Shown here: positions 32,882 through 64,000 of the stretch, one piece after another | Numbering within the stretch: position 1 is the first letter of the stretch | How the letters are laid out: each line of letters opens with the position of its first letter | Source of the DNA: Candidatus Daviesbacteria bacterium | Lineage (GTDB): Bacteria; Patescibacteriota; Microgenomatia; Daviesbacterales; UBA10151 | Direction: 5' to 3' | DNA length: 64,000 nt | NCBI GenBank assembly: GCA_030648435.1 | Contig: JAUSHE010000014.1 | Coordinates: 4,466 to 68,465, forward strand | Notes under the pieces: generated by a model | Databases searched by the model: none | Seen by the model: only the letters and a program-made list of their open reading frames with translations | Told to the model about the DNA's origin: nothing | Program-made: the position numbers and the translations under genes

Positions 32882-34495
32882 ATGTATAAAAAAGTAAATA
32901 TCTTTTCGTTTTGTTTAATTCTGCTGGTAGCTTTCTTTTTAAGATTCTATCAGATTAATAATATCCCGCCGTCTTTAAACTGGGATGAAGTGTCAATTGG
33001 CTATAATGCTTATTCAATATTGAAGACCGGTAGAGATGAGTGGGGACAATTTTTGCCTTTAAGTTTCAGGGCTTTTGGGGATTATAAATTACCGCTTTAT
33101 ATTTATCTTGATGCGCCGTTTGTGGCGCTTTTGGGTCTGACTGAAGCGGCAGTCAGGTTGCCTTCGGTACTTTCAGGAATGGGAGTTGTTGTTCTTGTTT
33201 TTCTGATACTAAAAGAATTAACTAAAAGTTTTTACCTTTCTCTTTGGGGAATGTTTATCAGTGCTACTTTGCCATGGCTGGTGGTCTTTTCCCGTATCGC
33301 ACTTGAGGCAAATCTGGCTTTGTTTTTAACCACAGCATCGTTCTATCTATTATTGCTTGCACGCAGAAAAAAAATATTACTGTTTTTTTCTGCAGTTTTG
33401 TTGGGATTATCAATTTTTTCTTATAACAGCAGTAGGGTATTAGTTATTCTGTTTTTGTTGCTTGGTATTGTATTTTACAGAAACTTTAAAAAGAAAGAAA
33501 TACTTTTACCGTTAGTTATTATAATAATATTTATTCTGATTGCCTTTTTTCAGGCGGTTACGGTAGATTCGGGAGCAAGATATAAATGGACAACTATTTT
33601 GGATGAAGGGGCGATCACAAGAATCAATCAGCTCCGTGGACTCTCCGGTTTGCCGTCGCTCCTTAATCAGTTGATTCATAATAAAGCGACATATTTTATA
33701 ACAGAGGCCTCAAAAAATTATATCTATCATTTTGATCCGTACTTTTTGTTTATAAACGGAGGGTCGAATTTTCAATTTTCTATTCCCGGTTCAGGTCAGA
33801 TTTATTTAAGTTTGTTGCCTTTGATTGTATTGGGAATATGGAAGATGATGTGTGAGCGAAAAGGATGGCAGTTGTTTATACTTGGGTGGCTTCTTATTTC
33901 GCCAATCCCAGGGGCTATTACAAGGGACGCACCTCATTCTTTAAGGGCAATTTTTATGACCGTGCCGTTAGTTTTAATTGCAGTTATGGGAATAAAACGG
34001 ATTCAGGATTCTATATCCGGCAAAATTTTTATTTTGTTAACTATTTTAATGGTGCTGTTATTATCGATTAGTGCTTTTGTTTTCTGGCAAAACTATGGTA
34101 ATGATTATCAGAAAAATTATTCATGGTCATGGCAGTACGGATATAAACAGGTTATGGAATTTGTTCATACCAATGGGAATAATTACGATAGGATTATTTT
34201 TACAAAAAGATATGGTGAACCACACGAATTCCTGCTTTTCTATTTACAATATGATCCCTTAAAGTATCAAACTAATGAAACCTTAATAAGATATGAGCGG
34301 TCGGATTGGTTTTGGGTAGACAGGTTTGATAAGTTTGAATTTATTAATGATTGGGAGATTAAAGATAAGGTTTTAGGCGCAAATAATACTCTCTTAATCA
34401 CCAGTCCGGGTAATTATCCAATAGGATCTCAGGTTTTAGAAACAATCAAATTTTTGGACGGGAAAGCCGCCTTTGACATAGCAGCAGTGAACTAG
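32882..34495 (+). CDS. PMT_2-family GT-C glycosyltransferase (tandem paralog A).
   Basis: NWDEVSIGYNAYSILKTGRDEWGQFLPLSF. 537 aa. Confidence 0.7.
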   Translation: MYKKVNIFSFCLILLVAFFLRFYQINNIPPSLNWDEVSIGYNAYSILKTGRDEWGQFLPLSFRAFGDYKLPLYIYLDAPFVALLGLTEAAVRLPSVLSGMGVVVLVFLILKELTKSFYLSLWGMFISATLPWLVVFSRIALEANLALFLTTASFYLLLLARRKKILLFFSAVLLGLSIFSYNSSRVLVILFLLLGIVFYRNFKKKEILLPLVIIIIFILIAFFQAVTVDSGARYKWTTILDEGAITRINQLRGLSGLPSLLNQLIHNKATYFITEASKNYIYHFDPYFLFINGGSNFQFSIPGSGQIYLSLLPLIVLGIWKMMCERKGWQLFILGWLLISPIPGAITRDAPHSLRAIFMTVPLVLIAVMGIKRIQDSISGKIFILLTILMVLLLSISAFVFWQNYGNDYQKNYSWSWQYGYKQVMEFVHTNGNNYDRIIFTKRYGEPHEFLLFYLQYDPLKYQTNETLIRYERSDWFWVDRFDKFEFINDWEIKDKVLGANNTLLITSPGNYPIGSQVLETIKFLDGKAAFDIAAVN

Positions 34496-34513: not shown

Positions 34514-36121
34514 ATGAGGATTTTAGTAGGGATTTTTATATTAGGTTTCATTTTAAGAGTTATTCTATTGGATGTTGCACCTCCCGGGTTTAATGCCGAT
34601 GAGGCGGCATTGGGTTATAATGCATATTCTTTACTTCAGACCGGTAAAGATGAATGGGGAGCCAGTTTCCCGCTTGTTTTTAGGTCTTTTTCCGATTATA
34701 AACCAGGACTTTATGTTTATCTGGCGCTTCCTTTTGTTGCAGTACTTGGACTTTCAGAATTCGCAGTTAGATTGCCATCTATTTTGCTGGGAACTTTTTC
34801 GATAGTTCTTATTTATTTTCTTGCACAAGAGCTGTTCAAAAAAGAAACTGTGGCACTAGCTTGCGCCTTTCTTTTGGCTATTTCTCCCTGGCACATACAT
34901 TTTTCAAGAGGTGCCTGGGAAGCTAATGTAGCTACGTTTTTTATTCTTTTAGGAGTTTACTCTTTTATTAAATTTTTTAGGGATAAACGCTTTTTATGGG
35001 TCTCTGTAATATCCTTTATTGCTTCAATGTATGCTTATCAAGGCCCAAGGATTGTAGTGCCTGTATTAGTTCTGTTACTTGTGATTTTCTATTTTAGAAG
35101 ATTAAGTTTAAAGAAAAATATTTCGGTAATAGTATTTGCCGTTATTTTATTATTGCCAATGTTTTTTATTTTAATTAGCTCGGCTGGTTTAGCAAGATTT
35201 CAAGGCGTATCAATATTTTCTGATAAGGGTCCGTTAAACCGCATCAACGAGGAAAGGGGCGAACATTCAGATGGATCAGTTTTAAGTAGAATCTTTCATA
35301 ATAAAGTAGAGGCTTATACAAGTGACTTTTTAAATCATTATCTTGATCATTTTGATCCTAATTTTCTTTTTACTGCAGGTGATCCACTCAAAAGAAATGG
35401 AATTCCTGATATTGGGCAGATGTATTTCTTCGAAATAGTTACATTTCTTGCCGGATTATATTTTTTGCTGAAGAATAGATTTGAAAATACAAAAATAATC
35501 CTTCTTTGGTTGATGGTAGCTCCTTTAGCTTCCTCTTTGACTTTTCAAACGCCACATGCCATAAGGGCACATAATATGGTTATTCCGCTGACCTTAATTT
35601 CTGGTTTGGGGCTCGGTATGTTATGGGAGAGCGTATTTAAACTGCGCTGGTATATAAGAAATCTGTTATTAGGTACAGTAGTTTTAACCGTATGTATTTC
35701 TTTGGCAGTTTTTTTAGACAGATATTTCGTACATTCCCCAAAGAAATATGCGCTTGAGTGGGAATATGGTTTTTCGCAAGCGATTGCATACATTGCTCAG
35801 AATAATGATAAATATCAGAAAATTGTTATGACAGATAGGTATGATCAACCGTATATACTATTCCTTTTTTATTCTAAGTACGATCCGGCTCAATATCAAA
35901 AAGAATATAAAGCAATAGGAGATAATAAGTTTGGTTTTTCAACGATTAATTCATTTAATAAATATGAATTTAGACCAATAGGGAAAGAAGAGATTGGAAA
36001 CCATAAAAATACGTTATTTATCGGAACAGAAGAAGAGATTGGTGAAAAAGGAGATTTATTAAAAATAATTAATTTTCCGAACGACAAACCAGTATTCAAG
36101 ATAGTAGGCACTCAGAGATGA
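34514..36121 (+). CDS. PMT_2-family GT-C glycosyltransferase (tandem paralog B).
   Basis: FNADEAALGYNAYSLLQTGKDEWGASFPLVF. 535 aa. Confidence 0.7.
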   Translation: MRILVGIFILGFILRVILLDVAPPGFNADEAALGYNAYSLLQTGKDEWGASFPLVFRSFSDYKPGLYVYLALPFVAVLGLSEFAVRLPSILLGTFSIVLIYFLAQELFKKETVALACAFLLAISPWHIHFSRGAWEANVATFFILLGVYSFIKFFRDKRFLWVSVISFIASMYAYQGPRIVVPVLVLLLVIFYFRRLSLKKNISVIVFAVILLLPMFFILISSAGLARFQGVSIFSDKGPLNRINEERGEHSDGSVLSRIFHNKVEAYTSDFLNHYLDHFDPNFLFTAGDPLKRNGIPDIGQMYFFEIVTFLAGLYFLLKNRFENTKIILLWLMVAPLASSLTFQTPHAIRAHNMVIPLTLISGLGLGMLWESVFKLRWYIRNLLLGTVVLTVCISLAVFLDRYFVHSPKKYALEWEYGFSQAIAYIAQNNDKYQKIVMTDRYDQPYILFLFYSKYDPAQYQKEYKAIGDNKFGFSTINSFNKYEFRPIGKEEIGNHKNTLFIGTEEEIGEKGDLLKIINFPNDKPVFKIVGTQR

Positions 36122-37710
36122 CTCCGAGAATAAAGATAGTTTTGCTGATAATAATTGTTCTCTCGGCATTTTTGAGGTTGTATAAGCTAAATTCTATACC
36201 ATCAGCGCTAAATTGGGATGAAGCGGCAGCAGGTTATAATGCATATACGATTGCTAATTGGGGAAGAGATGAGGGTGGAAATGTTTTACCTCTTGTTTTC
36301 ACTTCTTTTTATGACGATAAACATCCTGTTCATATCTATATAACTGCTATTTTTGTTAAGCTTTTTGGATTGTCGGATTTTACTGTCAGATTACCTAGCG
36401 CTGTAATTGGCATATTTAGTGTTTTGGTAATTTTTTATTTGGCACGGATTCTTTTCAAAAATAATCTGATAGCATTATTATCTGCTTTGTTTTTAGCTGT
36501 TTCCCCGTATCATATACAATTTTCAAGGGGGCTTTGGGAAGTCAATTTCGCCCTTTTTTTCTTCTTACTGGGCCTATTATTTTTTTTCTTAGCCTTACAG
36601 AATAAAAGAAAACTTTTGAGCTTAGCTTTTTTAAGTTTTGGATTCAGTATTTTTTCTTACCACTCATCAAAGATTGTGGTTCCGATTGTTGTTTTATTGC
36701 TGATCCTGTTATATTTTAAGGATTTAAGAAAACTTTCTTGGAATTTTTATAGCGGGTTATTAATTTTTTTTGTATTTATTACACTACTTTTTATTGATAC
36801 CAGACTTCTCGGAACGGCGAGAGCTAAACAAACTCAATTCTCCAGGGATATTATTGAGAAAACTCAAATCTTTCAAAAAACAAATAATTCTTTCCTTGGT
36901 GTAGGAGAAATTATCCTTAAACAGTATATAACTCATTTTACTCCGCAATATCTTTTTATTTCCGGCGATCAGAGCCCCAGAACTTCTATCAAAGTTATCG
37001 GAGAATTCTATAAAATTGATGCATTTTTTATTCTGGTTGGACTATTTTTTCTGTTGAAAATGAGGTCTAAGGCATCTATGATCATCCTTGCTTGGTTGAT
37101 ATTGGCTCCGATACCTGCCAGTCTGGTTAAAGGCGCTCCCAGCGCCAATAGGGCGGTTTTTATGATGGGGAATTTGCATCTTTTGTCGGCCATAGGTGCA
37201 GCTTCCATCGTCGGATTATTTAAACAAAGATTAAGGATATATATTTTAATAATTATTCTCTTCGTCGTAAGTTTGCAGGTTTATTCCTATACTAATTACT
37301 ATTTTAATGTTTATCCTTTGAAAGATCCTCATGAATGGCAATATGGAATGAAACAAGTAGTGGAATTTGTAAAATTGCATCCGGAGTATAATCAAGTTTA
37401 TATCACAGATATCCGATCGCAACCGTATATCTTTTTCCTGTTGTATCTAAAAACTCCATTACCTGAGTTCCTGAATACTGTGGTCTATAATCGTGGTGAA
37501 ATCAAAAAAACTAGTGTAGTTGCCTATTTTGATAAATATTATTTCGGAGGATGGGATCCGATTGAAAGTATGCCTACGCCTGGAGTATTATATGTTTTGA
37601 GCCCAAGTCAATATGATGGTTTAAAACACAGATCTGATTTTGATGTAAAAAAAATTATTCATTTTCCCGATGGGGGAGATGATTTTTTTCTAGTCAGCGC
37701 AGAATTATGA
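36118..37710 (+). CDS. PMT_2-family GT-C glycosyltransferase (tandem paralog C).
   Basis: NWDEAAAGYNAYTIANWGRDEGGNVLPLVF. 530 aa. ATGA overlap with paralog B. Confidence 0.7.
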   Translation: MTPRIKIVLLIIIVLSAFLRLYKLNSIPSALNWDEAAAGYNAYTIANWGRDEGGNVLPLVFTSFYDDKHPVHIYITAIFVKLFGLSDFTVRLPSAVIGIFSVLVIFYLARILFKNNLIALLSALFLAVSPYHIQFSRGLWEVNFALFFFLLGLLFFFLALQNKRKLLSLAFLSFGFSIFSYHSSKIVVPIVVLLLILLYFKDLRKLSWNFYSGLLIFFVFITLLFIDTRLLGTARAKQTQFSRDIIEKTQIFQKTNNSFLGVGEIILKQYITHFTPQYLFISGDQSPRTSIKVIGEFYKIDAFFILVGLFFLLKMRSKASMIILAWLILAPIPASLVKGAPSANRAVFMMGNLHLLSAIGAASIVGLFKQRLRIYILIIILFVVSLQVYSYTNYYFNVYPLKDPHEWQYGMKQVVEFVKLHPEYNQVYITDIRSQPYIFFLLYLKTPLPEFLNTVVYNRGEIKKTSVVAYFDKYYFGGWDPIESMPTPGVLYVLSPSQYDGLKHRSDFDVKKIIHFPDGGDDFFLVSAEL

Positions 37711-39534: not shown

Positions 39535-41007
39535 ATGTTTTCTTCTTGGAATAAATATGTACTACTCTTTTTCTTAACTTACTTATCTATTGGTTTATTT
39601 ATATATAAAGATTATGGCATATCCTGGGACGAACCATCACAAAGACAGGTGGGTTATGTGAACTATGTTTATTTAACAGGTAAGGATAAGGAGGTGCTGT
39701 CTAATTTTGCAGATAAATATTATGGTCCTGTTTTTGAACTACCACTAATAATAATGGAGAGAGTTTTACGTGTTGAGGATCCCAAGACTATTTATCAGAT
39801 GAGGCACCTGATAACTTTTGGTATTTTTTATCTCGGTGTAATTTTTTTCTATTTTTTGAATACATTAATCTTTAATGACAAAAAGTATGGATTGATTGCC
39901 TGCGTCTTATTGGTCTTAAGTCCTCGAATATTTGCTGATAGTTTTTATAATTCAAAAGATATCCCTTTTCTTTCTTTTTTTATAATCTCAACATTCACGC
40001 TCTTCAAATTAATAGAAAAAAGGTCGTGGAAGTGGGTCTTCCTTCATGCGTTCGCTACAACTTTGTTGGTAGGAATTAGAGCGATAGGTATTATTATGCC
40101 TTTAATAACACTTCTGGTTCTGTTAAAAGAGAATTTTATTCATCATAAGACATTTCTTAAAAAAATAGTTGTATACCTGTTTGTTACCATGCTAATGATT
40201 GTACTTTCTTGGCCTCTTTTATGGATGAATCCGTTAAATATACTTAGCGTGTTAAAGAATATGGTAAATTTCAATTATCAAACTAATTTACCTATTTTAT
40301 ACATGGGTAAATATATATCTCCTTTTTCCGTTCCGTGGCACTATATCCCTGTGTGGATTTTTATTACGGTACCCGTAACGTACGGCGTATTATTTGTAAT
40401 TGGGTTAATTAGAACGATTTTTGAAAAGAATGTTTTAAATCTAGTGTTGTTATTATTAATTATCTCTCCGGTTATTGGAGTAATTATCTTACATTCGACG
40501 TTATATGATGGTTGGAGGCATCTATATTTTGTCTATCCCTTTATGGTGATTTTTATGGTTAGAGGACTTAAATCGGTGCCCCGACCTTTAGTTATTTTAA
40601 CTTGCATAGAAATAGTCACAGTTATAATTTTTATGTGGAGATATCATCCTTATCAGAATCTATATTTTAATATTGCATTGAATCAGAATATGAAAGAGGT
40701 AAAACAGAATTACGAGCTTGACTATTGGGGTTTATCCTACCGTCAAGCCTTAGAGTTTATAGTGAAAAATGATTCTGCTGAAAAAATACCTGTTCTTGTT
40801 GCAAATAATCCGGGAAATTCGAATTCTTTAATGTTGGATCAAGTTGATCGTCAAAGGTTACAATATTTACCGGACGGTGATCTTACAAATGCTAAATATT
40901 TTGTGAGTAATTACCGATGGCATATTGATGATTATAGTTATGGACAAGAAGTGTATAATTTCCAGATAGGAGGAGCAAAAATTATATCAGTTTACAAATT
41001 AAAATAG
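39535..41007 (+). CDS. Polytopic membrane protein, GT-C candidate (DE motif).
   Basis: 490 aa with GISWDEPSQRQVGYVNYVYLTGKD after the first TM. Confidence 0.5.
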   Translation: MFSSWNKYVLLFFLTYLSIGLFIYKDYGISWDEPSQRQVGYVNYVYLTGKDKEVLSNFADKYYGPVFELPLIIMERVLRVEDPKTIYQMRHLITFGIFYLGVIFFYFLNTLIFNDKKYGLIACVLLVLSPRIFADSFYNSKDIPFLSFFIISTFTLFKLIEKRSWKWVFLHAFATTLLVGIRAIGIIMPLITLLVLLKENFIHHKTFLKKIVVYLFVTMLMIVLSWPLLWMNPLNILSVLKNMVNFNYQTNLPILYMGKYISPFSVPWHYIPVWIFITVPVTYGVLFVIGLIRTIFEKNVLNLVLLLLIISPVIGVIILHSTLYDGWRHLYFVYPFMVIFMVRGLKSVPRPLVILTCIEIVTVIIFMWRYHPYQNLYFNIALNQNMKEVKQNYELDYWGLSYRQALEFIVKNDSAEKIPVLVANNPGNSNSLMLDQVDRQRLQYLPDGDLTNAKYFVSNYRWHIDDYSYGQEVYNFQIGGAKIISVYKLK

Positions 41008-42192
41008 ATGATTAAGAAGATAACAGTATTATTTCTGACCTGGAGAATAGGGTTATTTGTAGTTGCCGCTTTAGCGGTTAAATTCATTCCGGTTTTCGGG
41101 AACCGTTTTCCTTATTTTAATCAGGTATTGGCAGTGACAGGATTGCCTTCGTGGGTGTGGGGATTTGGAAATTTTGACGGGGTGCATTATTTAAGAATTG
41201 CCCAAAACGGCTACAACGCAGAGTACTCTCAAGCCTTCTTCCCGCTATATCCTTTGTTGGTACACTTCTTTACAAATCTAAATTTACTCGTACACAAGAA
41301 TCCGATACTTGACACTAGAATTTATGTAGATCCCAGTTATTTCTTTACGGGATTCATACTTTCAAATATTTTTTTTCTATTGGCACTTATATTCTTCTAT
41401 AAATTAGTAAGGATAGACTTCAGTCAAAAAGTAGCTTTTGGAGCGTTAATTTTATTGGTATCTTTTCCTACATCTTTTTACTTTGGCTCCATTTATACAG
41501 AGTCACTCTTTTTATTTCTGTCATTAGGAGCAATTTATTTTGCAAGAAAAGGTAACTTTCTTGCTGCTGGTGTATTTACTATGTTTGCTTCTGCTACAAG
41601 AATTTTCGGTTTACTTTTGATTCCGCTTATCTTGAATGAAATTTATATAAGATTGAAGAAAGAAGGATTAAGTTTAAGAAGCGGAGAATTAACGAAAGCA
41701 ATTATAGGAGTTTTACTAACTCCTTTTGGCAGTTTACTTTATATGTTATATTTAAAATTAAATTTTGATAACCCGTTATATTTTTTAACTTCACAACCAC
41801 TTTTTGGCGCCGAGAGAACCTCGGGAGGTTTCATTTTGTTACCTCAAGTTATTTATAGATATCTAAAAATTTTTATGACTGTTCCTATTTCATCTCAACT
41901 ATTTTTTAATGCATTTTTAGAATTCAGTTTTACAATTGTTGCTTTGGTATGCTTATTGTTATTTGTTAAAAAAATGAGGATCAGCTATTTTATATTCACT
42001 TTAGGCTGTTTGATTATGCCTACTTTGACAGGAACACTCTCTTCGATGCCCAGGTATTCTTTAATGGGTTTTTTGCTTCTTCCTTTTATTGTGCAATCAA
42101 CAAAAGGATACTATAAATTAGTGGCTGGTTTATTTATAATTATTGGAATTATTCTAACAAGCCTTTTTATTAGAGGTTATTGGGTAGCATAA
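41008..42192 (+). CDS. GT-C membrane protein, PIG-V/Mannosyl_trans2 (GT76)-like.
   Basis: GNFDGVHYLRIAQNGYNAEYSQAFFPLYPLL closely resembles the conserved motif of GPI mannosyltransferase 2 and its bacterial homologs. 394 aa, polytopic. Confidence 0.55.
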   Translation: MIKKITVLFLTWRIGLFVVAALAVKFIPVFGNRFPYFNQVLAVTGLPSWVWGFGNFDGVHYLRIAQNGYNAEYSQAFFPLYPLLVHFFTNLNLLVHKNPILDTRIYVDPSYFFTGFILSNIFFLLALIFFYKLVRIDFSQKVAFGALILLVSFPTSFYFGSIYTESLFLFLSLGAIYFARKGNFLAAGVFTMFASATRIFGLLLIPLILNEIYIRLKKEGLSLRSGELTKAIIGVLLTPFGSLLYMLYLKLNFDNPLYFLTSQPLFGAERTSGGFILLPQVIYRYLKIFMTVPISSQLFFNAFLEFSFTIVALVCLLLFVKKMRISYFIFTLGCLIMPTLTGTLSSMPRYSLMGFLLLPFIVQSTKGYYKLVAGLFIIIGIILTSLFIRGYWVA

Positions 42193-47573: not shown

Positions 47574-48827
47574 TTATATTATTTTTGCTTTTGGAACAGG
47601 TATTATAAAACGACCACCGTTTATTTTAAAGCTTGATAATTTATCCATAATTGGATTGGCAAAATTCCAAGCTAGGATGAATATATAATCAGGTTTGGTC
47701 TCTGAGATTTTATTAAAAGGAAAGACTGGGATATGAGTACCAGGAGTATAGAGTCCTTGTTTATACGCACTGTCGTCTACTATATAATCTAGAATTTGTG
47801 GTCCAATTTTATAGAAATTTAGCAAAGTATTCCCCTTTGCCGGAGCACCGTATCCTACGATAGTCTTTCCCTGCGATTTCAATTTTTTAAGAAGAACAGT
47901 AAGTTCTCTCCTGTTATTTTTAATGGCTTTTGCGAAATCCAGATATGTTTTGGTTTCATTAAGTCCTAAGTTTTTTTCCTCGTCCAAGAACTTTTGTACA
48001 GCTTTCTTTACTTTGTATTTAGCGCCCATTTTTTTACCATAGATCCGTAGTGACCCACCGTGAGAACTGACCTTTTTGGCGTCAAATATTTCCATGTTCA
48101 GTCTTTTAAAAATTGCAGAGAGAGATCTGACCGAAAGATATGATAAATGTTCATGGTAGATTGTATCGAATAGATTCTTTTTTATAAAATCAATCAGATA
48201 CGGAAATTCAATTACAAAAACCCCGTCGTCTTTAGTTAAAATTTTAACTGATTCTATAATCTCATCTAAATCGTGAATATGGGCAAAGGCATTATTGGCG
48301 GTGACAACATCAGCCTGTCCGAATTTATCTACAATGTTTTTGGCGACTTTAGTGTTTAGGAAAAAAGGTAAAGTTTGAAGGCCTGAGTTCGTTGCTTTCT
48401 TTGCGATTTTTATTGCAGGGTCGACCCCCAGTATTTTGATACCGGCTTTTTTTAACGGTCTAAGCAAAATTCCATCATTGCTACCTATATCAACCACCAA
48501 AGATTTTTTGTTTAATTTAAACCTTTTTATTAAATCGCCGGCATATTCTTCGAAATGAGTAACAAAAACAGCTGAAGTAGAGGATACGTAGACATAATTT
48601 CTAAAAAGTAATTCCGGAGAAACAACATGGGTTAGTTGCAACTGGCCGCAATCGATACAAAAATTGACTTGTAACGGAAAAAATGATTCATTCTTTTTTA
48701 GATCAGTCTTTGTTAGAAATGCGTTAGCAGGGGGAGTGGGGGACAAGGAGATGATTCTCTTAAGACTTCTTCCCTTACACATTCGGCAGTAGTTTAATTT
48801 AAATACCGAATGATTATTGTTTGTCAT
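47574..48827 (-). CDS. Class I SAM-dependent methyltransferase with an N-terminal zinc ribbon, NDP-hexose C-methyltransferase (TylCIII)-like.
   Basis: Zinc-ribbon cysteines CRMCKG...CIDCG followed by a methyltransferase core (VVDIGSNDGILL). 417 aa. Paralog of the ORF at 55975. Confidence 0.6.
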   Translation of the reverse strand: MTNNNHSVFKLNYCRMCKGRSLKRIISLSPTPPANAFLTKTDLKKNESFFPLQVNFCIDCGQLQLTHVVSPELLFRNYVYVSSTSAVFVTHFEEYAGDLIKRFKLNKKSLVVDIGSNDGILLRPLKKAGIKILGVDPAIKIAKKATNSGLQTLPFFLNTKVAKNIVDKFGQADVVTANNAFAHIHDLDEIIESVKILTKDDGVFVIEFPYLIDFIKKNLFDTIYHEHLSYLSVRSLSAIFKRLNMEIFDAKKVSSHGGSLRIYGKKMGAKYKVKKAVQKFLDEEKNLGLNETKTYLDFAKAIKNNRRELTVLLKKLKSQGKTIVGYGAPAKGNTLLNFYKIGPQILDYIVDDSAYKQGLYTPGTHIPVFPFNKISETKPDYIFILAWNFANPIMDKLSSFKINGGRFIIPVPKAKII

Positions 48828-50070: not shown

Positions 50071-51924
50071 GTGTTATATAATTTTGGCTGGATGATAAAA
50101 ACTTTAAAAGTTCATATTGCAGTTAAAGCTTTATTGTATTGGTATATATTTATTTTTATCTCAACTGAAGCTTTGTCCTATTTACATCTTTTGGAAAGAA
50201 ACTATATTCTCACTGCAGAAATCTTTTTTTGGGTAGTTTTCCTCTTTTTTAATCATCAGGAAATCAGGCGAAAAATCCAGGTTATTGATATCCGCTCAAA
50301 GAGCATACTATTTATATTAGCCCTGTTTGGATTAACTTTTATCCAAGGTTTTTTCAGTGCTCCAAGTACAACAGACAGCATGGTTTACCATATCCCAAGA
50401 GTTATGTATTGGATGCAGGAAAAAACTCTTTTTCAGGATGTAATTAGGAACAGTCATGATTATATGGCTCCGTTTGGAGAATATATTTTACTTCATCTAT
50501 ACCTTATTTTTGACAACGACAGGATGTTATTTTTCTCCCAGTGGATTGCTTATGTAGTATCAGTTGTACTCATCGGAATTATAGCTTCTCAATTTGGAGC
50601 AGATCAAAAGACAAAGCAATTAGTCAGGTTATTTACAGCCACATTACCTATTGCTGTTATGCAAGCTTCCAGTACTCAAGTTGACATGGTAGTTACAGTA
50701 TTGGTTCTTTTGAGTTTATACTTATCGATGCTACTTAGACAATTCTATGCTATTAAGCATTCAATATTGCTTGGTTTTGTTATAGGTTTGGGATTTCTAA
50801 CTAAAGCAACCTTTGTGTTTTATGTATTGATACCGATTGGTCTACTATTTTTCTCTTTGTGGCGACAATTTAAAAAATTGATATTAATAATATTACCCAT
50901 ACTGTTATTAACTATTATTCTGCAATTTAGATTTTTATCTCAAAATCTTTTATTATATGGAAATTTTCTTGGAGTAAAAGTATCCGAAAAAGGGGAAGAG
51001 GCGGTTTACATTAATGAAGTAATCAACCCTTCGAGCGTATTATCAAATTTAGTCCGTAATTTTCTTGTTCATCTTCCAATCCCCATCTTTTCATCATATA
51101 TACAAAATACAGTGGTACAACTACATAATTTAATTGGATTTGATATTAACGACCCAAGGATCACTTGCTGTGGTACAGAATTTAGTGTTAAGTCTATTCT
51201 GTATCCGCAGGAAGATATTGTTGCAAATCCGATACATCTAATTATTATTATATCGGGAGGATTTCTGTTTTTTTATAAAAGAAAACAACTTCATATAAAT
51301 CCTCAAATCAAAATCTTATATTTATTAACGATTGCTTCGCTTATTCTTTTTTCAGCATTCATCAAATGGCAACCTTTTCATCCAAGACTGGAGATTCCTT
51401 TTTTTATGGTAGGGACTATGAGTGCTATTATTATTATAAGTAACGCAAAAAAAATAAAACTACTTTATATAGGACTTATTTTATCTAGCGTAATTGTATT
51501 AATAGTGGTATTTCTAAATGTATCCAGGCCTTATATTTCATATAATGTATTTTACAATATGGTAAAAGCTCTCAAGCCTCCCCTTGCAAGTGTTCCTGAA
51601 GCATTTTATGTAAAGCCCCGCCAACAACAATATTTTAACGCCCGGTATTATTGGTATGAACCATATGGAAAAATTATTGATCTTCTCAAAAAAGAGAACA
51701 ATATAGAACTTGCTTTTAATTTAGGAGATGGATTTGAATATCCGTTATGGACGCTTTTCAGAAAATATAAGCTCAATTATCAGGTTGTACCTATGTCTAA
51801 ACTTTCAAAAAACACAATTATCATCTCAACATCGAAAGATCCCTACAAGAGGGAAGGCTATTTGACTGAGTGTATAAAAACTGAGATAGATTATGGTTAT
51901 GCATGTTTAACAATTGCGAACTGA
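50071..51924 (+). CDS. Large polytopic membrane protein, GT-C candidate.
   Basis: 617 aa with more than 12 hydrophobic segments. GTG start at 50071 or ATG at 50092. I recognise no diagnostic motif. Confidence 0.4.
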   Translation: MLYNFGWMIKTLKVHIAVKALLYWYIFIFISTEALSYLHLLERNYILTAEIFFWVVFLFFNHQEIRRKIQVIDIRSKSILFILALFGLTFIQGFFSAPSTTDSMVYHIPRVMYWMQEKTLFQDVIRNSHDYMAPFGEYILLHLYLIFDNDRMLFFSQWIAYVVSVVLIGIIASQFGADQKTKQLVRLFTATLPIAVMQASSTQVDMVVTVLVLLSLYLSMLLRQFYAIKHSILLGFVIGLGFLTKATFVFYVLIPIGLLFFSLWRQFKKLILIILPILLLTIILQFRFLSQNLLLYGNFLGVKVSEKGEEAVYINEVINPSSVLSNLVRNFLVHLPIPIFSSYIQNTVVQLHNLIGFDINDPRITCCGTEFSVKSILYPQEDIVANPIHLIIIISGGFLFFYKRKQLHINPQIKILYLLTIASLILFSAFIKWQPFHPRLEIPFFMVGTMSAIIIISNAKKIKLLYIGLILSSVIVLIVVFLNVSRPYISYNVFYNMVKALKPPLASVPEAFYVKPRQQQYFNARYYWYEPYGKIIDLLKKENNIELAFNLGDGFEYPLWTLFRKYKLNYQVVPMSKLSKNTIIISTSKDPYKREGYLTECIKTEIDYGYACLTIAN

Positions 51925-55974: not shown

Positions 55975-57189
55975 TTAAATAATTCTAATTTTTGGGATAG
56001 GAATTATAAATTTTCCCCCATTCTTTTGATATTCTTTCAGTTGTTCAATAACTTCTTTGTAAATATTCCAACATAAAATTAATAAATAGTCAGGTTCTTC
56101 CTGATAGATCTTTTCTACGGGAAAAACCTGCATATGGGTACCAGGAGTATACAATCCTTGTTTTTCTTTTGCTCTATCTACAATAAAGTCAACTAATTTG
56201 GAGTCAATACCAAAATAATTCATCAATATATTTCCTTTTGCAGGTGCACTATATACTGCAACGTGCTTATTCTTTGTTTTTATATCATTTAGTAATTTGA
56301 TAAGATCTTTTTTTAATATATTGATGTTCTTATTTAATACATTGTATGTAGATAGTTTATTAAATCCTAGGTCCAACTCTTTTTTTACCAATTTAGTTAC
56401 ATTTTTTGAAATTTTAAATGAATTGGGATGAGATACATAGATTCTTAAGGAGCCCCCCTGCATATCTACCAGATCAACATCATATAACTCTAAATCTACG
56501 CTTTCAAATAAATTTCTTAAAGCTATAAGAGAATAGTAAAAAACATGTTCGTGATATATAGTGTCAAACTTATTTTCTAAAAGCCCCCTAATGTAGGGAA
56601 ATTCAAAAATTGCCGTACCATTTATTTTTAATAAAGTCCTCACTCCTTTTACAAAATCAACTATTTTTGGAACGTGTGCTAGAACATTCGCCCCAAAAAT
56701 TAAGTCAGCTCTTAATCCCTTCTTATTTAATTTTTTTGCTAATGCTAAATTGAAAAACTCAGGTAATGTTTTGATGCTTTTTTTATTGGCGAGGGCAGCT
56801 ATATTTTTAGCAGGATCGATACCGAGTATTCTTATGCCCAGTTGTTGGAAAAAATCAAGTTGAACACCATCATTTGAGGCAATTTCTACAACCAGATTTT
56901 TTTTGTTTAAATTAAATCTCCTAGTAAAATATTCCGCATTACTCCTGGAATGATCAATTATTGTTTGGGAGGTAGAGGAAAAATAGATATAATTTTCAAA
57001 TAAATCCTTTGGTGAAATTGTTTTCATCAATTGAACTAAGTAACATTTATTACAAAATCCTACGGTCAAATCATATTCAGCTTCTTTTTTCTTTAGGCCT
57101 TCTTTTGTTAGAAATAAGTTAACAAGAGGGATATCTCCTAAGCTGAAAAAGGGTTTTATATAATTGCTACAAACTCTACATTTAGTCAT
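55975..57189 (-). CDS. Zinc-ribbon class I SAM methyltransferase, NDP-hexose C-methyltransferase-like (paralog of the ORF at 47574).
   Basis: CRVCSN...CNKCYLVQL zinc ribbon and a methyltransferase core (VVEIASNDGVQL). 404 aa. Confidence 0.6.
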   Translation of the reverse strand: MTKCRVCSNYIKPFFSLGDIPLVNLFLTKEGLKKKEAEYDLTVGFCNKCYLVQLMKTISPKDLFENYIYFSSTSQTIIDHSRSNAEYFTRRFNLNKKNLVVEIASNDGVQLDFFQQLGIRILGIDPAKNIAALANKKSIKTLPEFFNLALAKKLNKKGLRADLIFGANVLAHVPKIVDFVKGVRTLLKINGTAIFEFPYIRGLLENKFDTIYHEHVFYYSLIALRNLFESVDLELYDVDLVDMQGGSLRIYVSHPNSFKISKNVTKLVKKELDLGFNKLSTYNVLNKNINILKKDLIKLLNDIKTKNKHVAVYSAPAKGNILMNYFGIDSKLVDFIVDRAKEKQGLYTPGTHMQVFPVEKIYQEEPDYLLILCWNIYKEVIEQLKEYQKNGGKFIIPIPKIRII

Positions 57190-58234: not shown

Positions 58235-59004
58235 TAAGGATTATTATTCCAAAGCTCCTTTAAATTTTCAAGCTCCCTAGATGTATCTACTGCATACCAG
58301 AAACCTTCATGCTTATAGACTGATAATTGTTCGTCATCCGCTATTCTTTGATAAGCTGCATGATCCATCTCTTCCGGTTTTAGGTATTTGAAGATTTCTT
58401 TCGTAAATACCATAAACCCTCCGTTAACCCAGTCTGAAAGAACAGGTTTTTCTTGAAATGATTTAACAAGATCTGGATTATTCTCATTAGTTTTAACCAG
58501 ACCAAATTTTGAGCTAGGATGTACACCAGTAATTGTGCCGATAGTTTTTTGATGCCTATGAAATTCAAGCAGTTTCTTTAGATCAATATTTGACACTCCA
58601 TCTCCATAAGTAACCATGAATTCTTTGTCTGTTTCAGGGATATATTTTTTACATTTTATAATTCTGTCCGAAGTAGGTGATTCTACACCGGTATCAACAA
58701 AAGTTATATTAAAAACATCAACACCGTCTTCTTTGCGGTTTTTTAAATGGAAAGTAGTTTTATAAGTCTTTGTATTAAGGGTGAAATCAGTCGTAAAAGC
58801 CTTTTGGTTTAAGAAAAAATCCTTAATGTAATTTCCCTTGTATCCTAAGGCTAGAATAAATTCATTAAATCCGTAATGTGCATATATTTTCATAATATGC
58901 CAAATAAGAGGTTTTCCGCCCACCTCAACCATTGGTTTTGGTTTAAACTCGGTCTCTTCTTTTAATCTTGTACCAACCCCTCCACAAAGAATTATTACTT
59001 TCAT
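58219..59004 (-). CDS. rfbF: Glucose-1-phosphate cytidylyltransferase.
   Basis: MKVIILCGGVGTRLKEETEFKPKPMVEVGGKPLIWHIMKIYAHYGFNEFILALGYKG closely matches the RfbF/DdhA N-terminus. 261 aa. Confidence 0.85.
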   Translation of the reverse strand: MKVIILCGGVGTRLKEETEFKPKPMVEVGGKPLIWHIMKIYAHYGFNEFILALGYKGNYIKDFFLNQKAFTTDFTLNTKTYKTTFHLKNRKEDGVDVFNITFVDTGVESPTSDRIIKCKKYIPETDKEFMVTYGDGVSNIDLKKLLEFHRHQKTIGTITGVHPSSKFGLVKTNENNPDLVKSFQEKPVLSDWVNGGFMVFTKEIFKYLKPEEMDHAAYQRIADDEQLSVYKHEGFWYAVDTSRELENLKELWNNNPYWKIW

Positions 59005-59022
59005 AATATCTTAAGTTTCTTA

Positions 59023-60066
59023 TTATACATTATCATATTGATTAGAAATACTATATTTTCGAATATAGTTTTTTACCTCATCAATAACTGGTTTACCTGA
59101 TAATTTTGAGTACGCATGTTTTTTCAAAGTCCGAGGATCAGTTTTATTTATTGTTAAATTATAAACTTTCAATGCAATACCTAAAGTAATATCGTTGATT
59201 ATCTTTTTTACCTTCACTAAATTTATGGTAATAAATGGGAATTTTATTAATAATCCTTTGAGAAATGCTTCTATGGAAAGGCTAACTTTTTTTAATGCCT
59301 CATCTCTTGTGAGACCCTCTTTTTTTATTAATTGATTTACGATGATTTCTACCCAAGCCGCGTATTGTTTTTTGTATCTTTTTTTGACAGAAATCACCTC
59401 AAGTGAATCAGTATACGTTCCGGTTGAGTCAGGAGTATGTTCCCGCATACAATAAATAAATGGAAGAATTTTTGATTTTCCATTAATGCATAAAATTATT
59501 GCTTGCAGGAGTTCGATTAGGTTATCATTTTTTATATCATTTGTATTTATTAAATATTTGGTTAATTCACGAATGTCCCTTGTCCTGGTAACGCTATAGA
59601 ACAATTGCATATAGTTTATTGATAGTTGATGTAAGCGAACCGATGGAATGTTTGAATCTATATCAATATCGATACTATTTAAATATGCAGGAAAGACTTT
59701 TAGTTCACCATTTTTGTAGTCTATAAATCTGAGATAGTGACCATGCACAGACGAGTAGTCGTCATTTTCTTCAAGGAAATCAATACATTTTTTTATTGAT
59801 TTAGGTATTATAAAGTCATCATCTCCACAAAAAATAACATATTTTGTCTTCACCTTATTATAAATTAAAGGAATTTTTTTTGCGTAGGAGTAATTTGGAT
59901 AATGAAAATATTTTACATTTTTGTATCTTCTTAAGTTAGGGAAAGGTTTTGAGGTAGAATCGCCAACAATTATTGATATTCTATAATTTGAATAATAATC
60001 CAACAGTCTTTCTAATTGCCGATGGCGGTTATAACTTGGTATGATAATTGTTACATTTTTGAACAT
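59023..60066 (-). CDS. Putative glycosyltransferase with a GT-A-like N-terminus.
   Basis: VTIIIPSYNRHRQLERLL and CGDDDFI (a DxD-like motif). 347 aa. Confidence 0.4.
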   Translation of the reverse strand: MFKNVTIIIPSYNRHRQLERLLDYYSNYRISIIVGDSTSKPFPNLRRYKNVKYFHYPNYSYAKKIPLIYNKVKTKYVIFCGDDDFIIPKSIKKCIDFLEENDDYSSVHGHYLRFIDYKNGELKVFPAYLNSIDIDIDSNIPSVRLHQLSINYMQLFYSVTRTRDIRELTKYLINTNDIKNDNLIELLQAIILCINGKSKILPFIYCMREHTPDSTGTYTDSLEVISVKKRYKKQYAAWVEIIVNQLIKKEGLTRDEALKKVSLSIEAFLKGLLIKFPFITINLVKVKKIINDITLGIALKVYNLTINKTDPRTLKKHAYSKLSGKPVIDEVKNYIRKYSISNQYDNV

Positions 60067-60111
60067 AAATAGAATTCTAACACTTTTAATGATTAAATAA
60101 TCCTAAGGGTT

Positions 60112-61011
60112 CTAAAGCCTGGCAAGTCTTCCTTCGAAGTGGGGGATATATAATCTGTTACCGGTTCTGGCAATTGCTAATCCTTCCTCCCAGTAAGTGC
60201 GGGCAGTATCTAATTGACTTTCTATCTCTGATAGATCACCCTCGCTTGCTAATACATTACATAAATTTTGCATATCACCTTGTTTGCGGAAAATAGGTAG
60301 AGCTTCGTCCTGAGAAGCCCTTGCCTCCCGAATCATTCCCATTGTTTGTTGTGTAACTCCTTTAACGTGTAAGACCCGGGCCAGTCTGTTTTGATACCGA
60401 CCATTATCAGTATCCGTTGTTACAAGTTTCCTTGCGTTGTCCTCAGCCGTAGTATAGGCATCTAGTGCTTCGGGAGACATGCCCATGTCATTGTATAACA
60501 ACCCAAATTGTGTATACGCTTCAACGTATGCCAGATTACTGTTGATTCCTAAATTACTCATGGCATCGGTCATAACAGATTCTGCAATTGGAATAAAAAA
60601 TAAGGCCGATGTATGTAAATATGCAGTTTTCTCAGTTTCTTTAACATATTGAGGAACGGGAAAAGTTTTATCTCTCCCGGCAGTTCTCCATGCATCGATA
60701 AGTCCGGATATAGCAGTTAACCGTACTTCCCAGTCGTCCGTCTTTGCTGCTGCTAAGGAGAAAGCTTGTATAGCTTCATACTGACGGTTCAACATCCTCA
60801 ATGGCACTCCCATTACATTTAAGACACGGGGATCGAGTCCGAATTCATCAAGCAGGTTTTCGCAAGTACTAACTGCTCTATTCCAATTTTCAGACCCTCC
60901 TGCAACCTGAAGAGCTCTGGCTGCTTCTAAGCGCTGATTAAATATTTCTGGTCTTTTAGGATATTCCACCATAATTAAGGAGATTATAAGACATAACTCA
61001 TAGGTTGTCAA
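60112..61011 (-). CDS. Hypothetical helical-repeat (TPR-like) protein that is compositionally atypical (GC-rich).
   Basis: 299 aa, rich in A/R/L/E/T and poor in K/I/N/F, unlike its neighbours. A 98-nt sample of its DNA counted about 45% GC, against roughly 30% in surrounding genes. Confidence 0.45.
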   Translation of the reverse strand: MTTYELCLIISLIMVEYPKRPEIFNQRLEAARALQVAGGSENWNRAVSTCENLLDEFGLDPRVLNVMGVPLRMLNRQYEAIQAFSLAAAKTDDWEVRLTAISGLIDAWRTAGRDKTFPVPQYVKETEKTAYLHTSALFFIPIAESVMTDAMSNLGINSNLAYVEAYTQFGLLYNDMGMSPEALDAYTTAEDNARKLVTTDTDNGRYQNRLARVLHVKGVTQQTMGMIREARASQDEALPIFRKQGDMQNLCNVLASEGDLSEIESQLDTARTYWEEGLAIARTGNRLYIPHFEGRLARL

Positions 61012-61042
61012 AAAAATAATTTGAATCTATAATAGAATAATT

Positions 61043-61972
61043 GTGAAAATAATATTTTTTGGATTAGGATCTATTGGGCAAAGGCATGCCAAGATTTTAC
61101 TGGAAAATTATACACACGATTTGTATGCCTTTCGTTCAGGTGAAAATAATGATGTAAATAAATTAGGTATAAAAGAAATTTATACTTTTGATGAGGTAAA
61201 AAACTTACAGCCGGATATTGCTTTTATCACCAATCCAACAGCCATGCACATAGAAACCGCACTAAAATGTGCGGAGTTGGGTTGCAAGCTCTTTATTGAA
61301 AAGCCGGTCGGGAAAGATACAGACGGATTAGAGAAGTTAATAAATATTGTAAAAAAGAAAAAATTAGTCACATATATTGCTTATAATTTGCGTTTTCATC
61401 CGGTGATTAAAAAAATAAAGGAATATTTGAAAAGGAAGAAACCGGTATATGCCCGGGTAGTTTGCACCTCATTCCTGCCGGCATGGAGACCAAATACGGA
61501 TCACCTTAAAGGTTATTCCGCAAATACCGCCATGGGAGGGGGAGTAATCCTTGATCTGTCGCATGAGATGGATTATGTTGGTTATCTGCTCGGCGGGATT
61601 AAAAAAATTTCAGGGAATTTTGCAAAAGTAAGCAATGTAACCGTAGATGCTGAGGATTATGCGGATATGACAGTTATATCAGGAGGTGTTCCTGTTAATA
61701 TTCATCTTGATTTCTTAAGTCAGATAAGGCAAAGATATATACAAATAGATTTTGAGAAGTTAACTGTAGTGGCTGACTTAATAGATGCGGAAATTAAGGA
61801 GCATGAGGGGGGAATAGTCAAAAATAGCATTGAATTGGATTATAATAGAGGCCAGGAATATGAAGAACAGTTAAAGTATTTTTTTGATAATATAGATAAT
61901 CCACGGATGATGAATAATTTAATTGAAGCAGGCGATCTATTTAAGAAGATAGTAACATTTAAAAATGGATAA
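61043..61972 (+). CDS. Gfo/Idh/MocA-family oxidoreductase.
   Basis: MKIIFFGLGSIGQRHA Rossmann motif and an EKP motif. 309 aa. Confidence 0.65.
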   Translation: MKIIFFGLGSIGQRHAKILLENYTHDLYAFRSGENNDVNKLGIKEIYTFDEVKNLQPDIAFITNPTAMHIETALKCAELGCKLFIEKPVGKDTDGLEKLINIVKKKKLVTYIAYNLRFHPVIKKIKEYLKRKKPVYARVVCTSFLPAWRPNTDHLKGYSANTAMGGGVILDLSHEMDYVGYLLGGIKKISGNFAKVSNVTVDAEDYADMTVISGGVPVNIHLDFLSQIRQRYIQIDFEKLTVVADLIDAEIKEHEGGIVKNSIELDYNRGQEYEEQLKYFFDNIDNPRMMNNLIEAGDLFKKIVTFKNG

Positions 61973-62699
61973 CTTGCTAAATTCGAAGAATCAAGCTTTG
62001 CTTATTACTATTTGTGCTAGAGGTGGGTCAAAAGGCGTAAAGGGTAAGAATATCCGCGAGCTGGCCGGTAAACCATTAATCTATTACACAATCAATCAGG
62101 CAAAGAAGTGGGGTAGGGGGGGGCATATTGTGGTAAGTACCGACTCGGAAGAAATTGCTAAAATTGCAAAGTCGTTTGGGGCGGAAGTGCCCTTTTTGAG
62201 GCCTTCAGACCTTGCTTCTGATATAAGTGCAAAAATTCCAGCTATTAGGCATGCCTTGCTTTCCAGCGAGGATATATATAAGGAAAAGTATAACCTCGTG
62301 ATGGATTTGGATGTTACATCTCCGGTACGGACAATACAGGACTTAGAAAATTCATATAGTTTATTCTTAGAGAAAAAACCTAAGACATTATTTAGTGTAG
62401 TTGCTGCCCACAAAAATCCTTATTTTAATATGGTGGAGATAAATACGGAAGGTAAAGCGGGTGTTTGCAAACCAGGTAAACATTTTATCCGCAGGCAGGA
62501 AACTCCCAAAGTTTATGATGTTAATGCATCCATATATATTTATGATAGAAATTTTTTGATTAATAAAAGAAATATTAATGTGATAAGCGATGATTCCATT
62601 GTTTATGTAATGGGCGATGTTTCGCGGACGGATATTGACTCTGAGCTGGACTTTAAGTTTATAGAATTTCTAGTAAAAGATGGTATCATATCACTATGA
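61965..62699 (+). CDS. Acylneuraminate/nonulosonate cytidylyltransferase (NeuA/PtmB/LegF-like CMP-sugar synthetase).
   Basis: ALLITICARGGSKGVKGKNIRELAGKPLIYYTI N-terminal signature. 244 aa. It contains an 8-G homopolymer at 62116-62123. Confidence 0.7.
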   Translation: MDNLLNSKNQALLITICARGGSKGVKGKNIRELAGKPLIYYTINQAKKWGRGGHIVVSTDSEEIAKIAKSFGAEVPFLRPSDLASDISAKIPAIRHALLSSEDIYKEKYNLVMDLDVTSPVRTIQDLENSYSLFLEKKPKTLFSVVAAHKNPYFNMVEINTEGKAGVCKPGKHFIRRQETPKVYDVNASIYIYDRNFLINKRNINVISDDSIVYVMGDVSRTDIDSELDFKFIEFLVKDGIISL

Positions 62700-63487
62700 G
62701 TAATTATCTTCAGAAATTTTCTTTAAAGGGGAAAGTAGCTTTTATAACGGGTGGTGTTGGTCTGATAGGAATAGAAGTGACGCGCGCCCTGGCAGATGCC
62801 GGAGCTAAGGTAATTATTTTAGACATAGATCAAGATAAAGCCAAAAAAATTCAGCAGAGCCTTAAAAATAAAGGTAAAGATGTCAAATATGAATACTTTG
62901 ATGTAACAGATTTAGTTAACATTGATCAATCAATAGATAAATTACAAAAAGAGTATGAAAATATTGACATATGGGTAAATACAGCGTATCCCAGAACAAA
63001 AGATTGGGGTAATAAGGTTGAAGAGCTAAGTTTAGAATCATGGCAGAAAAATGTGGACATGCATCTTAATAGCTATGCCTGGATTAGCCGTAAAGTTTGC
63101 TTATTAATGAAGGAGCAGGGGGGTGGGAGTTTAATTAATTTTGGTTCAACCTACGGAGTAGTAGGGAATAATTTTTCTGTTTACGAAGGCACTGACATGA
63201 GCAGTGCAATGGCTTATTCTGCCATCAAAGGAGGCATAATCAATCTGGGAAGGTATATGGCTTCTTACTTTGGAAAATTTAATATAAGGGTCAACACAGT
63301 TTGCCCCGGAGGTATTTTTGATAATCAAAATAAAATATTTGTTAAAAATTATGAGAGAAATACGCCGCTTAACAGGATGGGTAAACCGGAAGAAATAGCA
63401 AGCGCTGTTTTATTTTTATCATCAGATGCCGCATCGTATGTTACCGGAACTACTTTTATGGTTGATGGAGGTTGGACAGCAATTTAA
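62696..63487 (+). CDS. Classical short-chain dehydrogenase/reductase (PtmA-like).
   Basis: KVAFITGGVGLIGIEV (TGxxxGxG) and YSAIKGG (YxxxK). 263 aa. Confidence 0.7.
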   Translation: MSNYLQKFSLKGKVAFITGGVGLIGIEVTRALADAGAKVIILDIDQDKAKKIQQSLKNKGKDVKYEYFDVTDLVNIDQSIDKLQKEYENIDIWVNTAYPRTKDWGNKVEELSLESWQKNVDMHLNSYAWISRKVCLLMKEQGGGSLINFGSTYGVVGNNFSVYEGTDMSSAMAYSAIKGGIINLGRYMASYFGKFNIRVNTVCPGGIFDNQNKIFVKNYERNTPLNRMGKPEEIASAVLFLSSDAASYVTGTTFMVDGGWTAI

Positions 63488-64000
63488 GATTTTCCTTCTA
63501 AAATTTGCTGATAAAACCTGAGGTTTTTTACTTGTTCTTTTATAGTACATAAATCGTGTCTGTTACCCAGAAATGACTGAACTTCTTTATAGATGCCGGC
63601 TTTAAATCCTGTGTCCAGCTGATCTTCTAAAGATATATCCTTAATTGCAAAGGTTCCCAGCTCTTGAACTTGTAGCTTTTCCATAGGTTTAAATATTAAT
63701 TTATTTTTCTTTGTCATTACTTCAACTGTCCATCTGCCGGGGGCTTTCCAGTTAGCATGATAGGAAAATAGAATTCCTTTTTCAGTAATACCACCACCGC
63801 TAAAAATTGCAGCTTTAGAATGCCAAGGAAGGGAGCCAGAGGCATACGACGACATTTTTTTAGGCAAACCTGCAAGGAAAAACATTAGATCAATCACATG
63901 CGTAGAATTCTGTAGAAACCAATTTTCTTTTACTCCAGGGGCCTTAGTCAAAGGCTCAATACGGAAGCTTGCTTCTGTGAAATCAAAAACGATAGATAAG
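63484..64000 (-). CDS. C-terminal part of an oxidoreductase-like CDS whose N-terminus lies beyond the window end.
   Basis: The reverse-strand frame stays open through nt 64000. The track ORF starts at a TTG, which I read as an internal codon. Domain identity is uncertain (possibly a Gfo/Idh/MocA C-terminal domain). Confidence 0.4.
   Translation of the reverse strand, partial: LSIVFDFTEASFRIEPLTKAPGVKENWFLQNSTHVIDLMFFLAGLPKKMSSYASGSLPWHSKAAIFSGGGITEKGILFSYHANWKAPGRWTVEVMTKKNKLIFKPMEKLQVQELGTFAIKDISLEDQLDTGFKAGIYKEVQSFLGNRHDLCTIKEQVKNLRFYQQILEGKS

Follow-up and report, generated by a model that had tools for sequence, protein, structure and literature searches.

The window, by which we mean the whole 64,000-base stretch of DNA that was analyzed, closes with three genes on the forward strand, followed on the reverse strand by part of a fourth gene that is cut by the window end. 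The genes at this locus, along with the runs of G that lie within them, are as follows.

61043..61972, forward strand: GFO/IDH/MocA oxidoreductase, PtmF-like (PF01408 and PF22725)
61807..61812, forward strand: run of six Gs (G6) in the PtmF-like gene, in codons GAG GGG GGA
61965..62699, forward strand: LegF/PtmB/NeuA-type CMP-nonulosonate cytidylyltransferase, 244 aa, intact (PF02348; NCBI MDO8573456.1)
62116..62123, forward strand: homopolymer of eight Gs (G8), covering the last two bases of codon 51 and all of codons 52 and 53
62696..63487, forward strand: SDR oxidoreductase, PtmA-like (adh_short_C2, 4e-47)
63118..63123, forward strand: G6 followed by T and GGG in the PtmA-like gene, in codons CAG GGG GGT GGG
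63484..64000, reverse strand: second GFO/IDH/MocA-type gene, 3' part, cut by the window end (ORF 63484..63951)

The stop codon of the PtmF-like gene overlaps the start of the cytidylyltransferase gene by 8 nt, and the cytidylyltransferase stop in turn overlaps the ATG of the SDR gene (ATGA). The same order of PtmF-like gene, cytidylyltransferase, and SDR was found in the closest available relatives, which are three Logan contigs (L001, L002, and L003), and in three loci from other Daviesbacteria (L165 to L167). The syntenic counterpart of the gene that is cut by the window end is a 318-aa GFO_IDH_MocA protein in both L001 and L002.

The product of the central gene matched PF02348 (CTP_transf_3) at 72.6 bits, above the gathering score of 22.6 (E=5e-20), which places it in this family. 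In the alignment, the P-loop ARGGSKG is conserved, and the DLD.TSP and RRQ motifs are also present. The score against the PseF equivalog TIGR03584 was 136.3 bits, below the cut-off of 205.7, and thus the protein falls outside PseF. A phmmer search identified CMP-NeuAc synthetases as the best PDB matches, namely, 6ifd (E=4.6e-27) and 1eyr (E=9e-25). The identical protein at NCBI, MDO8573456.1, is named "acylneuraminate cytidylyltransferase family protein" and comes from an 89.7-kb contig of a Candidatus Daviesbacteria MAG. The neighbors are those that characterize LegF/PtmB, that is, an adjacent oxidoreductase of the PtmF-type GFO family and an SDR of the PtmA type. The latter scored 252.5 bits against PRK09186 (cut-off, 255) and 195 bits against NF050062 FlagModPtmA, its second-best NCBIfam model (cut-off, 350).

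No nonulosonate synthase (NeuB/LegI) and no precursor enzymes of the LegB/C/H/G type were found in the 64-kb window, in which all other long ORFs were annotated; the window ends 0.5 kb past the triad. Genes of this kind do lie beside the triad in relatives. Specifically, the triad of L165 to L167 is flanked by NeuB+SAF, an NeuC-type 2-epimerase, a DegT aminotransferase, a hexapeptide acetyltransferase, a formyltransferase, and a HisF/HisH-like pair, while an 81%-identical relative (L168) carries, downstream of the triad, a HisF/HisH pair, DegT, and a CBS-containing dehydratase of the Polysacc_synt_2 type. The initial annotation had called the gene an NeuA/PtmB-like nonulosonate cytidylyltransferase. 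Given the PF02348 domain, the PtmA- and PtmF-like neighbors, and the NeuB, NeuC-type, DegT, and HisH/HisF-like genes by the triad in other Daviesbacteria, that label is reasonable. Judging from these similarities, we regard the gene product as a LegF/PtmB-like CMP-nonulosonate synthetase; its candidate substrates are Leg, Pse, and other 5,7-diamino nonulosonates.

Other observations concern the same set of genes. In the Daviesbacteria loci L165 to L168, which belong to the CPR, the Leg/Pse-type nonulosonate pathway is apparently complete, including the HisH/HisF-like pair and a 400-aa unknown. A literature search found no paper in the library searched linking nonulosonic acids with Patescibacteria, and none of the matches listed for the Candidate Phyla Radiation mentions such a link. 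Near the N terminus of the cytidylyltransferase, an eight-codon indel (LLNSKNQA, 61974-61997) is present in the window and in some homologues and is absent from L001, whose protein is 94% identical. A TTGCT sequence repeated directly at 61974-61978 and 61998-62002 flanks the indel, which resembles a small polymorphism arising recurrently by slippage or deletion.

Upstream of the triad, positions 6994-51924 make up one long glycan-biosynthesis island with at least nine paralogous membrane glycosyltransferases of the PMT_2/GT-C type, along with many GT2 and GT4 genes. Features of the window upstream of the triad are listed below.

6994-9150: GT2-PMT fusion, PMT_2/GT-C-type
9891-11414, 25708-27387, 31394-32878, and 32882-34495: PMT_2/GT-C-type paralogues
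34514-36121, 36118-37710, 39535-41007, and 50071-51924: further PMT_2/GT-C-type paralogues
13134-14804 and 17680-18822: two PTPS_related membrane proteins
18828-20300: flippase
41008-42192: PIG-V-like mannosyltransferase
47574-48827 and 55975-57189: two paralogous NDP-sugar C-methyltransferases (Methyltransf_13/14)
60112-61011, reverse strand: TPR protein, 299 aa, with a GC content of 0.42 compared with 0.34 for the window

The C-methyltransferase gene at 55975-57189 is flanked by NTP-transferase, epimerase/dehydratase, RmlC-like, and RmlD-like genes, and the one at 47574-48827 adjoins an epimerase/dehydratase and a cupin-type gene. These two neighborhoods suggest two branched-chain deoxysugar pathways. 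The TPR gene is missing at the junction between GT2 and the PtmF-like gene in L001 and L002, and a TPR gene is found there in the more distant L166 and L167. The glycan island also includes large ORFs, the longest of 1131 aa, that matched nothing in Pfam at E<=1e-5. They lie at 20297-23692, 23694-25721, 11417-13147, 14761-16419, 16416-17675, and 30160-31413. A tRNA scan of positions 1-64000 identified no tRNA genes, and a tandem-repeat scan of the window returned one weak repeat (5332-5373, period 21, 2 copies).

The eight-G tract and the search for length variants

The bases at 62116-62123 are GGGGGGGG, which the sequence together with an ORF check shows to be in frame as AGG-GGG-GGG, encoding R51-G52-G53. 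The sequence across 62100-62129 reads GCAAAGAAGTGGGGTAGGGGGGGGCATATT, and the eight Gs stand in the flanking context ...AAGTGGGGTAGGGGGGGGCATATT... of the gene. In a scan of the entire window, which has a GC content of 34.5%, this G8 was the sole run of at least seven Gs or Cs in all 64,000 bases. Runs of C reach six bases at most (4531, 22544, and 56453), and the only other G runs of at least six are those in the two neighboring genes (61807-61812 and 63118-63123). Thus, the position and reading frame that the initial annotation had given for the tract are borne out by the sequence, as is its statement that no G or C run longer than six occurs elsewhere in the window.

It had also been proposed that the tract is a contingency locus. 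Under this explanation, slippage within G8 would toggle the CMP-nonulosonate synthetase ON and OFF, perhaps along with the PtmA-like gene by polarity, and surface nonulosonate decoration would vary in the population, with consequences such as phage escape or altered attachment to host cells. Several properties of the tract are consistent with this proposal. With a length of eight at codons 51-53 of 244, it is a slippable repeat whose change in length alters the frame, and it lies 5'-proximally, within the gene's first quarter, as is typical of such loci. In simulated slips, G7 led to a 56-aa product and G9 to a 65-aa product, compared with 244 aa for the intact protein, and both shifted frames reached a stop 3-12 codons from the tract. 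The claim that a 1-nt slip would frameshift and truncate the enzyme is therefore correct, and truncation to 56-65 aa makes a switch mechanistically possible. Furthermore, the gene is part of a module for a surface glycan, also typical of contingency loci, and the ATGA overlap couples the downstream gene to it translationally.

Searches for length variants found none. Predicted products of G6, G7, G9, and G10 had no exact match among ~15 billion proteins. This result counts only weakly against a switch, as gene calling can miss short ORFs when the contigs are short. When the N-terminal 86 aa of the protein were used to search for same-strain fragments or OFF alleles, none was found, and the best match was 80% identical. 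A gene-position index had no exact record of either the cytidylyltransferase or the PtmF-like protein of the window. The corresponding look-up of the SDR led to a same-strain Logan contig, L004 (SRR13727527), which is 100% identical to the window over 1453 bp, including the G6 run of the SDR gene, and which begins at 62482, or 359 bp downstream of the tract.

Chance expectation of G and C runs

The number of long G or C runs that is expected in a window of this kind depends on the null model. For runs of at least eight, independent bases gave an expectation of 0.11 per window, and a first-order Markov chain gave 0.97. We judged codon resampling to be the most appropriate null, in which the 56 proteins were held fixed and synonymous codons were redrawn from the window's own usage. 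Under this model, 0.24 runs of at least eight were expected per window, with a probability of 0.22 for at least one. For shorter thresholds, observation and expectation were nearly indistinguishable, with 6 runs of at least six (5.9 expected) and 1 run of at least seven (1.1 expected). We also obtained an empirical base rate from 633 kb of sequence in 91 non-identical loci around homologues with less than 40% GC. In this sample, runs of at least six, seven, and eight occurred at 6.5, 1.4, and 0.2 per 64 kb, respectively, compared with 6, 1, and 1 in the window. Among these related low-GC loci, runs of at least eight Gs or Cs were limited to a C8, found in L017 (677-684) and L115 (676-683), two independently assembled contigs in which it has identical flanks and equal length.

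These estimates place the G8 at chance level for a window, which argues against a contingency locus. The over-representation of tracts that marks genomes with contingency loci was not seen in the 64 kb of genome counted, and the same 64 kb, which consist almost entirely of glycosylation genes, contain no other long G or C tract. One G8 per 64 kb is expected to be roughly a one-in-five event, which corresponds to about 1 per 300 kb or 3-4 in a 1-Mb genome of this composition. On the other side, the set of codons is improbable for this one peptide: from the window's codon usage, AGG-GGG-GGG given R-G-G has a probability of ~0.005, a post hoc value for a single site. Likewise, codon resampling gave P=0.013 for any G or C run of at least eight in this one gene, a post hoc value for a single gene.

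Runs of G in the neighboring genes had been brought forward together with the tract. The G6 runs at 61807-61812 and 63118-63123 are indeed present, but they are neither conserved nor significantly clustered. At the first site, L001 has G5 and L002 is without a run; at the second, L001 has GGGGAACGGA and L002 has AAAGAAATGGA, while L004 has the identical G6. Codon resampling predicted 0.71 runs of at least six in the three Gly-rich proteins of the module, and at least three such runs in any three consecutive genes had P=0.17. On the strength of this value, we rejected clustered G runs of at least six as a marker of the module.

The tract site in relatives and in the protein

If the tract were a contingency locus, it would be expected to be kept at the orthologous site in relatives. 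This was not observed. In L001, the site reads AGAGCTCAA and encodes Arg-Ala-Gln, even though the protein has 94% aa identity with that of the window and the nucleotide identity is 90.7% over 61036-64000 and 95.6% over 58937-60088. In L002 and L003 (90% aa and 80.6% nt identity), it reads AAGGGAAGG and encodes Lys-Gly-Arg. To these contigs we added 160 homologous loci from GTDB and JGI scans, for a total of 164, and 160 of the 164 alignments span the site; scans of GTDB representatives and JGI metagenomes yielded no homologue above 71% aa identity. Within ten codons around the site, the longest G run among 160 homologous genes was six, reached in one case, and in 0 of the 160 was there a G or C run of at least eight anywhere in the gene. 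Runs of seven Gs were found in 11 homologues. Eight of these are located at the protein's other R-G-G, in the invariant P-loop ARGGSKG, where they are encoded by AGG GGG GGx. These cases show directly that R-G-G peptides in this family can yield long G runs through codon choice, with no role in switching, and that they do so even at an essential motif. Taken together, the absence or interruption of the tract in the closest relatives and in all 160 homologues, an outcome that the initial annotation had itself named as a refutation, and its occurrence at chance level speak against the slipped-strand switch that the initial annotation had put forward.

The place of the tract within the protein is variable as well. 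In the alignment, residues 51-53 are the most variable of the N-terminal half, with RGG, RAQ, KGR, RGK, KAK, KDT, and others. An AlphaFold model of the enzyme built from this alignment (pTM 0.80; pLDDT ~92 for residues 41-60) predicts that residues 50-53 form a turn joining helix 2 (38-49) to strand 2 (54-59), and in the PDB alignments the R-G-G turn faces unrelated residues in 6ifd and 1eyr. The model and the alignments would make the R51-G52-G53 position a tolerant, variable four-residue turn.

The tract of the window differs from the AAGGGAAGG of L002 by three A-to-G changes. To place such changes in context, we polarized the substitutions between the window and L001 over 61043-63487, with L002 as the outgroup. 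On the window lineage, 46 of the 74 changes were A>G or T>C (27 and 19, respectively), and 26 of the 29 gains of G created runs of only one to three. On the coding strand, G makes up 22-23% of the three-gene module, compared with 19% of all ORFs. Since the window is richer in G than its relatives at each of the three runs, we considered a tendency of its lineage to extend G runs in particular. This idea was rejected because the gains of G belong to a wider AT>GC bias, and 26 of the 29 made runs of no more than three. The tract looks like the tail of general compositional drift and not like directed expansion; its own sites lie outside the polarized counts.

Explanations for the tract and known systems

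In our assessment, the G8 is probably an incidental product of codon choice in an intact, ordinary CMP-nonulosonate synthetase of the LegF/PtmB type. With a G8 arising about once in five windows and with none in the closest relatives, nothing shows an on/off switch. Such a tract could have come about in a simple manner. The turn would ancestrally have been the family consensus K/R-G/A-K/R in purine-rich codons, of which AAG GGA AGG is one example, and in which A-to-G changes, in line with the AT-to-GC bias of the whole module, may have chanced to join Gs into one run. The enzyme would then be constitutive, using CTP to activate a legionaminic- or pseudaminic-type sugar destined for a surface glycan. 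The tract would have a somewhat raised indel rate, like any G8, and presumably would not be maintained or selected as a switch.

We consider it unlikely that the tract toggles the enzyme as a contingency locus. Aside from its position and the effect of a slip, an argument can be made from DNA repair. MutS and MutL are lacking in some CPR lineages (Saccharibacteria; PMC8406219), and G8 is within the range of measurable slippage in organisms without mismatch repair (PMC8355987). Across CPR phyla, the status of MutS/MutL is mixed (PMC8406219), and the 64-kb window contains no DNA repair genes. Nevertheless, the phase-variable genes of Campylobacter are mostly transferases and modifying enzymes (PMC8355987), and this difference adds to the evidence from chance expectation, from length variants, and from relatives. 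Still less probable is a more specific version, in which the G8 would be a young, lineage-specific contingency locus and the first switch by simple-sequence-repeat phase variation to be described in a CPR (Patescibacteria) bacterium, where it would toggle a legionaminic- or pseudaminic-type surface sugar. A literature search found no paper in the library searched pairing phase-variable with Candidate Phyla Radiation, and there was no homopolymeric phase-variation paper on Patescibacteria among the matches listed. If the tract were a true switch, it would carry the biology of contingency loci beyond host-adapted pathogens, to episymbiotic groundwater bacteria of ultra-small size and to their surface nonulosonate glycans.

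It is very unlikely that the length of the tract is an artefact of sequencing or assembly, that is, a homopolymer miscall behind which the true sequence is different. Homopolymers are error-prone on some platforms, but the G8 keeps the frame, and the full-length protein aligns end to end with 25 homologues. At the site itself, the three residues of the tract align to three residues in 25 of 25 homologues with zero gaps, which makes the length in the assembly the one that keeps the frame, whereas an error of one base in either direction would have broken the ORF. In addition, the identity of an independent assembly (L004) over the adjacent 1453 bp, including a G6, speaks for the accuracy of the sequence here. 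Finally, a programmed recoding site, at which transcriptional slippage or ribosomal frameshifting would yield a second protein, has nothing but the presence of a homopolymer in its favor and can be dismissed, as the unshifted frame gives the conserved enzyme at full length and both shifted frames end 3-12 codons from the tract with no alternative ORF that continues.

The poly-G/C tracts of C. jejuni, with which the G8 invites comparison, are kept across strains and are variable in length. They are also numerous, with many tracts per genome that are mostly G9-G10, and they rely on the organism having no functional mismatch repair (PMC8355987). The G8 resembles the loci of C. jejuni and Helicobacter, whose slipped-strand phase variation affects flagellin-glycosylation, capsule, and LOS genes, in being an intragenic, 5'-proximal G run in a gene for nonulosonate or surface-glycan synthesis, where a slip of one base leads to an early stop. 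In contrast to C. jejuni, the window has one G8 at chance frequency, the tract is absent from the nearest relatives, and no length variant was found. Furthermore, the gene encodes a CMP-synthetase, unlike the transferases and modifying enzymes of those loci, and a review of phase variation in Campylobacter has 0 occurrences of ptmB, Cj1331, and neuA (PMC8355987). The parallel with Campylobacter and Helicobacter that the initial annotation had drawn does not carry over to this host, which is a groundwater-type CPR bacterium and not a Campylobacter-like pathogen, and whose glycan island is without another long G or C tract. Our results call for caution in a more general sense, as G7-G8 runs have arisen repeatedly from R-G-G peptides in this family of enzymes, with no sign of switching. 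Since in-frame G8 tracts arise by chance in AT-rich genomes and since R-G-G peptides produce such runs, a lone tract is not evidence of phase variation.

The gene triad, as distinct from the tract, can be compared with known pathways for legionaminic acid. It passes no curated equivalog model, and the window is without the NeuB/LegI-type synthase of legionaminic-acid clusters. Compared with the clusters of Campylobacter, the host here is a CPR bacterium, and the window has no flagellar gene. Homologues from Campylobacter concisus (L035 and L036) share 48-50% aa identity with the cytidylyltransferase of the window. Relative to the CMP-NeuAc synthetases of V. cholerae (6ifd) and N. meningitidis (1eyr), the enzyme is distant in sequence, with full-length homology and a consistent predicted fold. 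Plesiomonas shigelloides has a legionaminic-acid cluster that has been studied experimentally, and in it PtmA, LegF, and PtmF are found side by side (PMC4481668, Table 5). The same three families, GFO oxidoreductase, CTP_transf_3, and SDR, are adjacent in the window as they are in the PtmF-LegF-PtmA triad of Campylobacter, Vibrio, and Plesiomonas.
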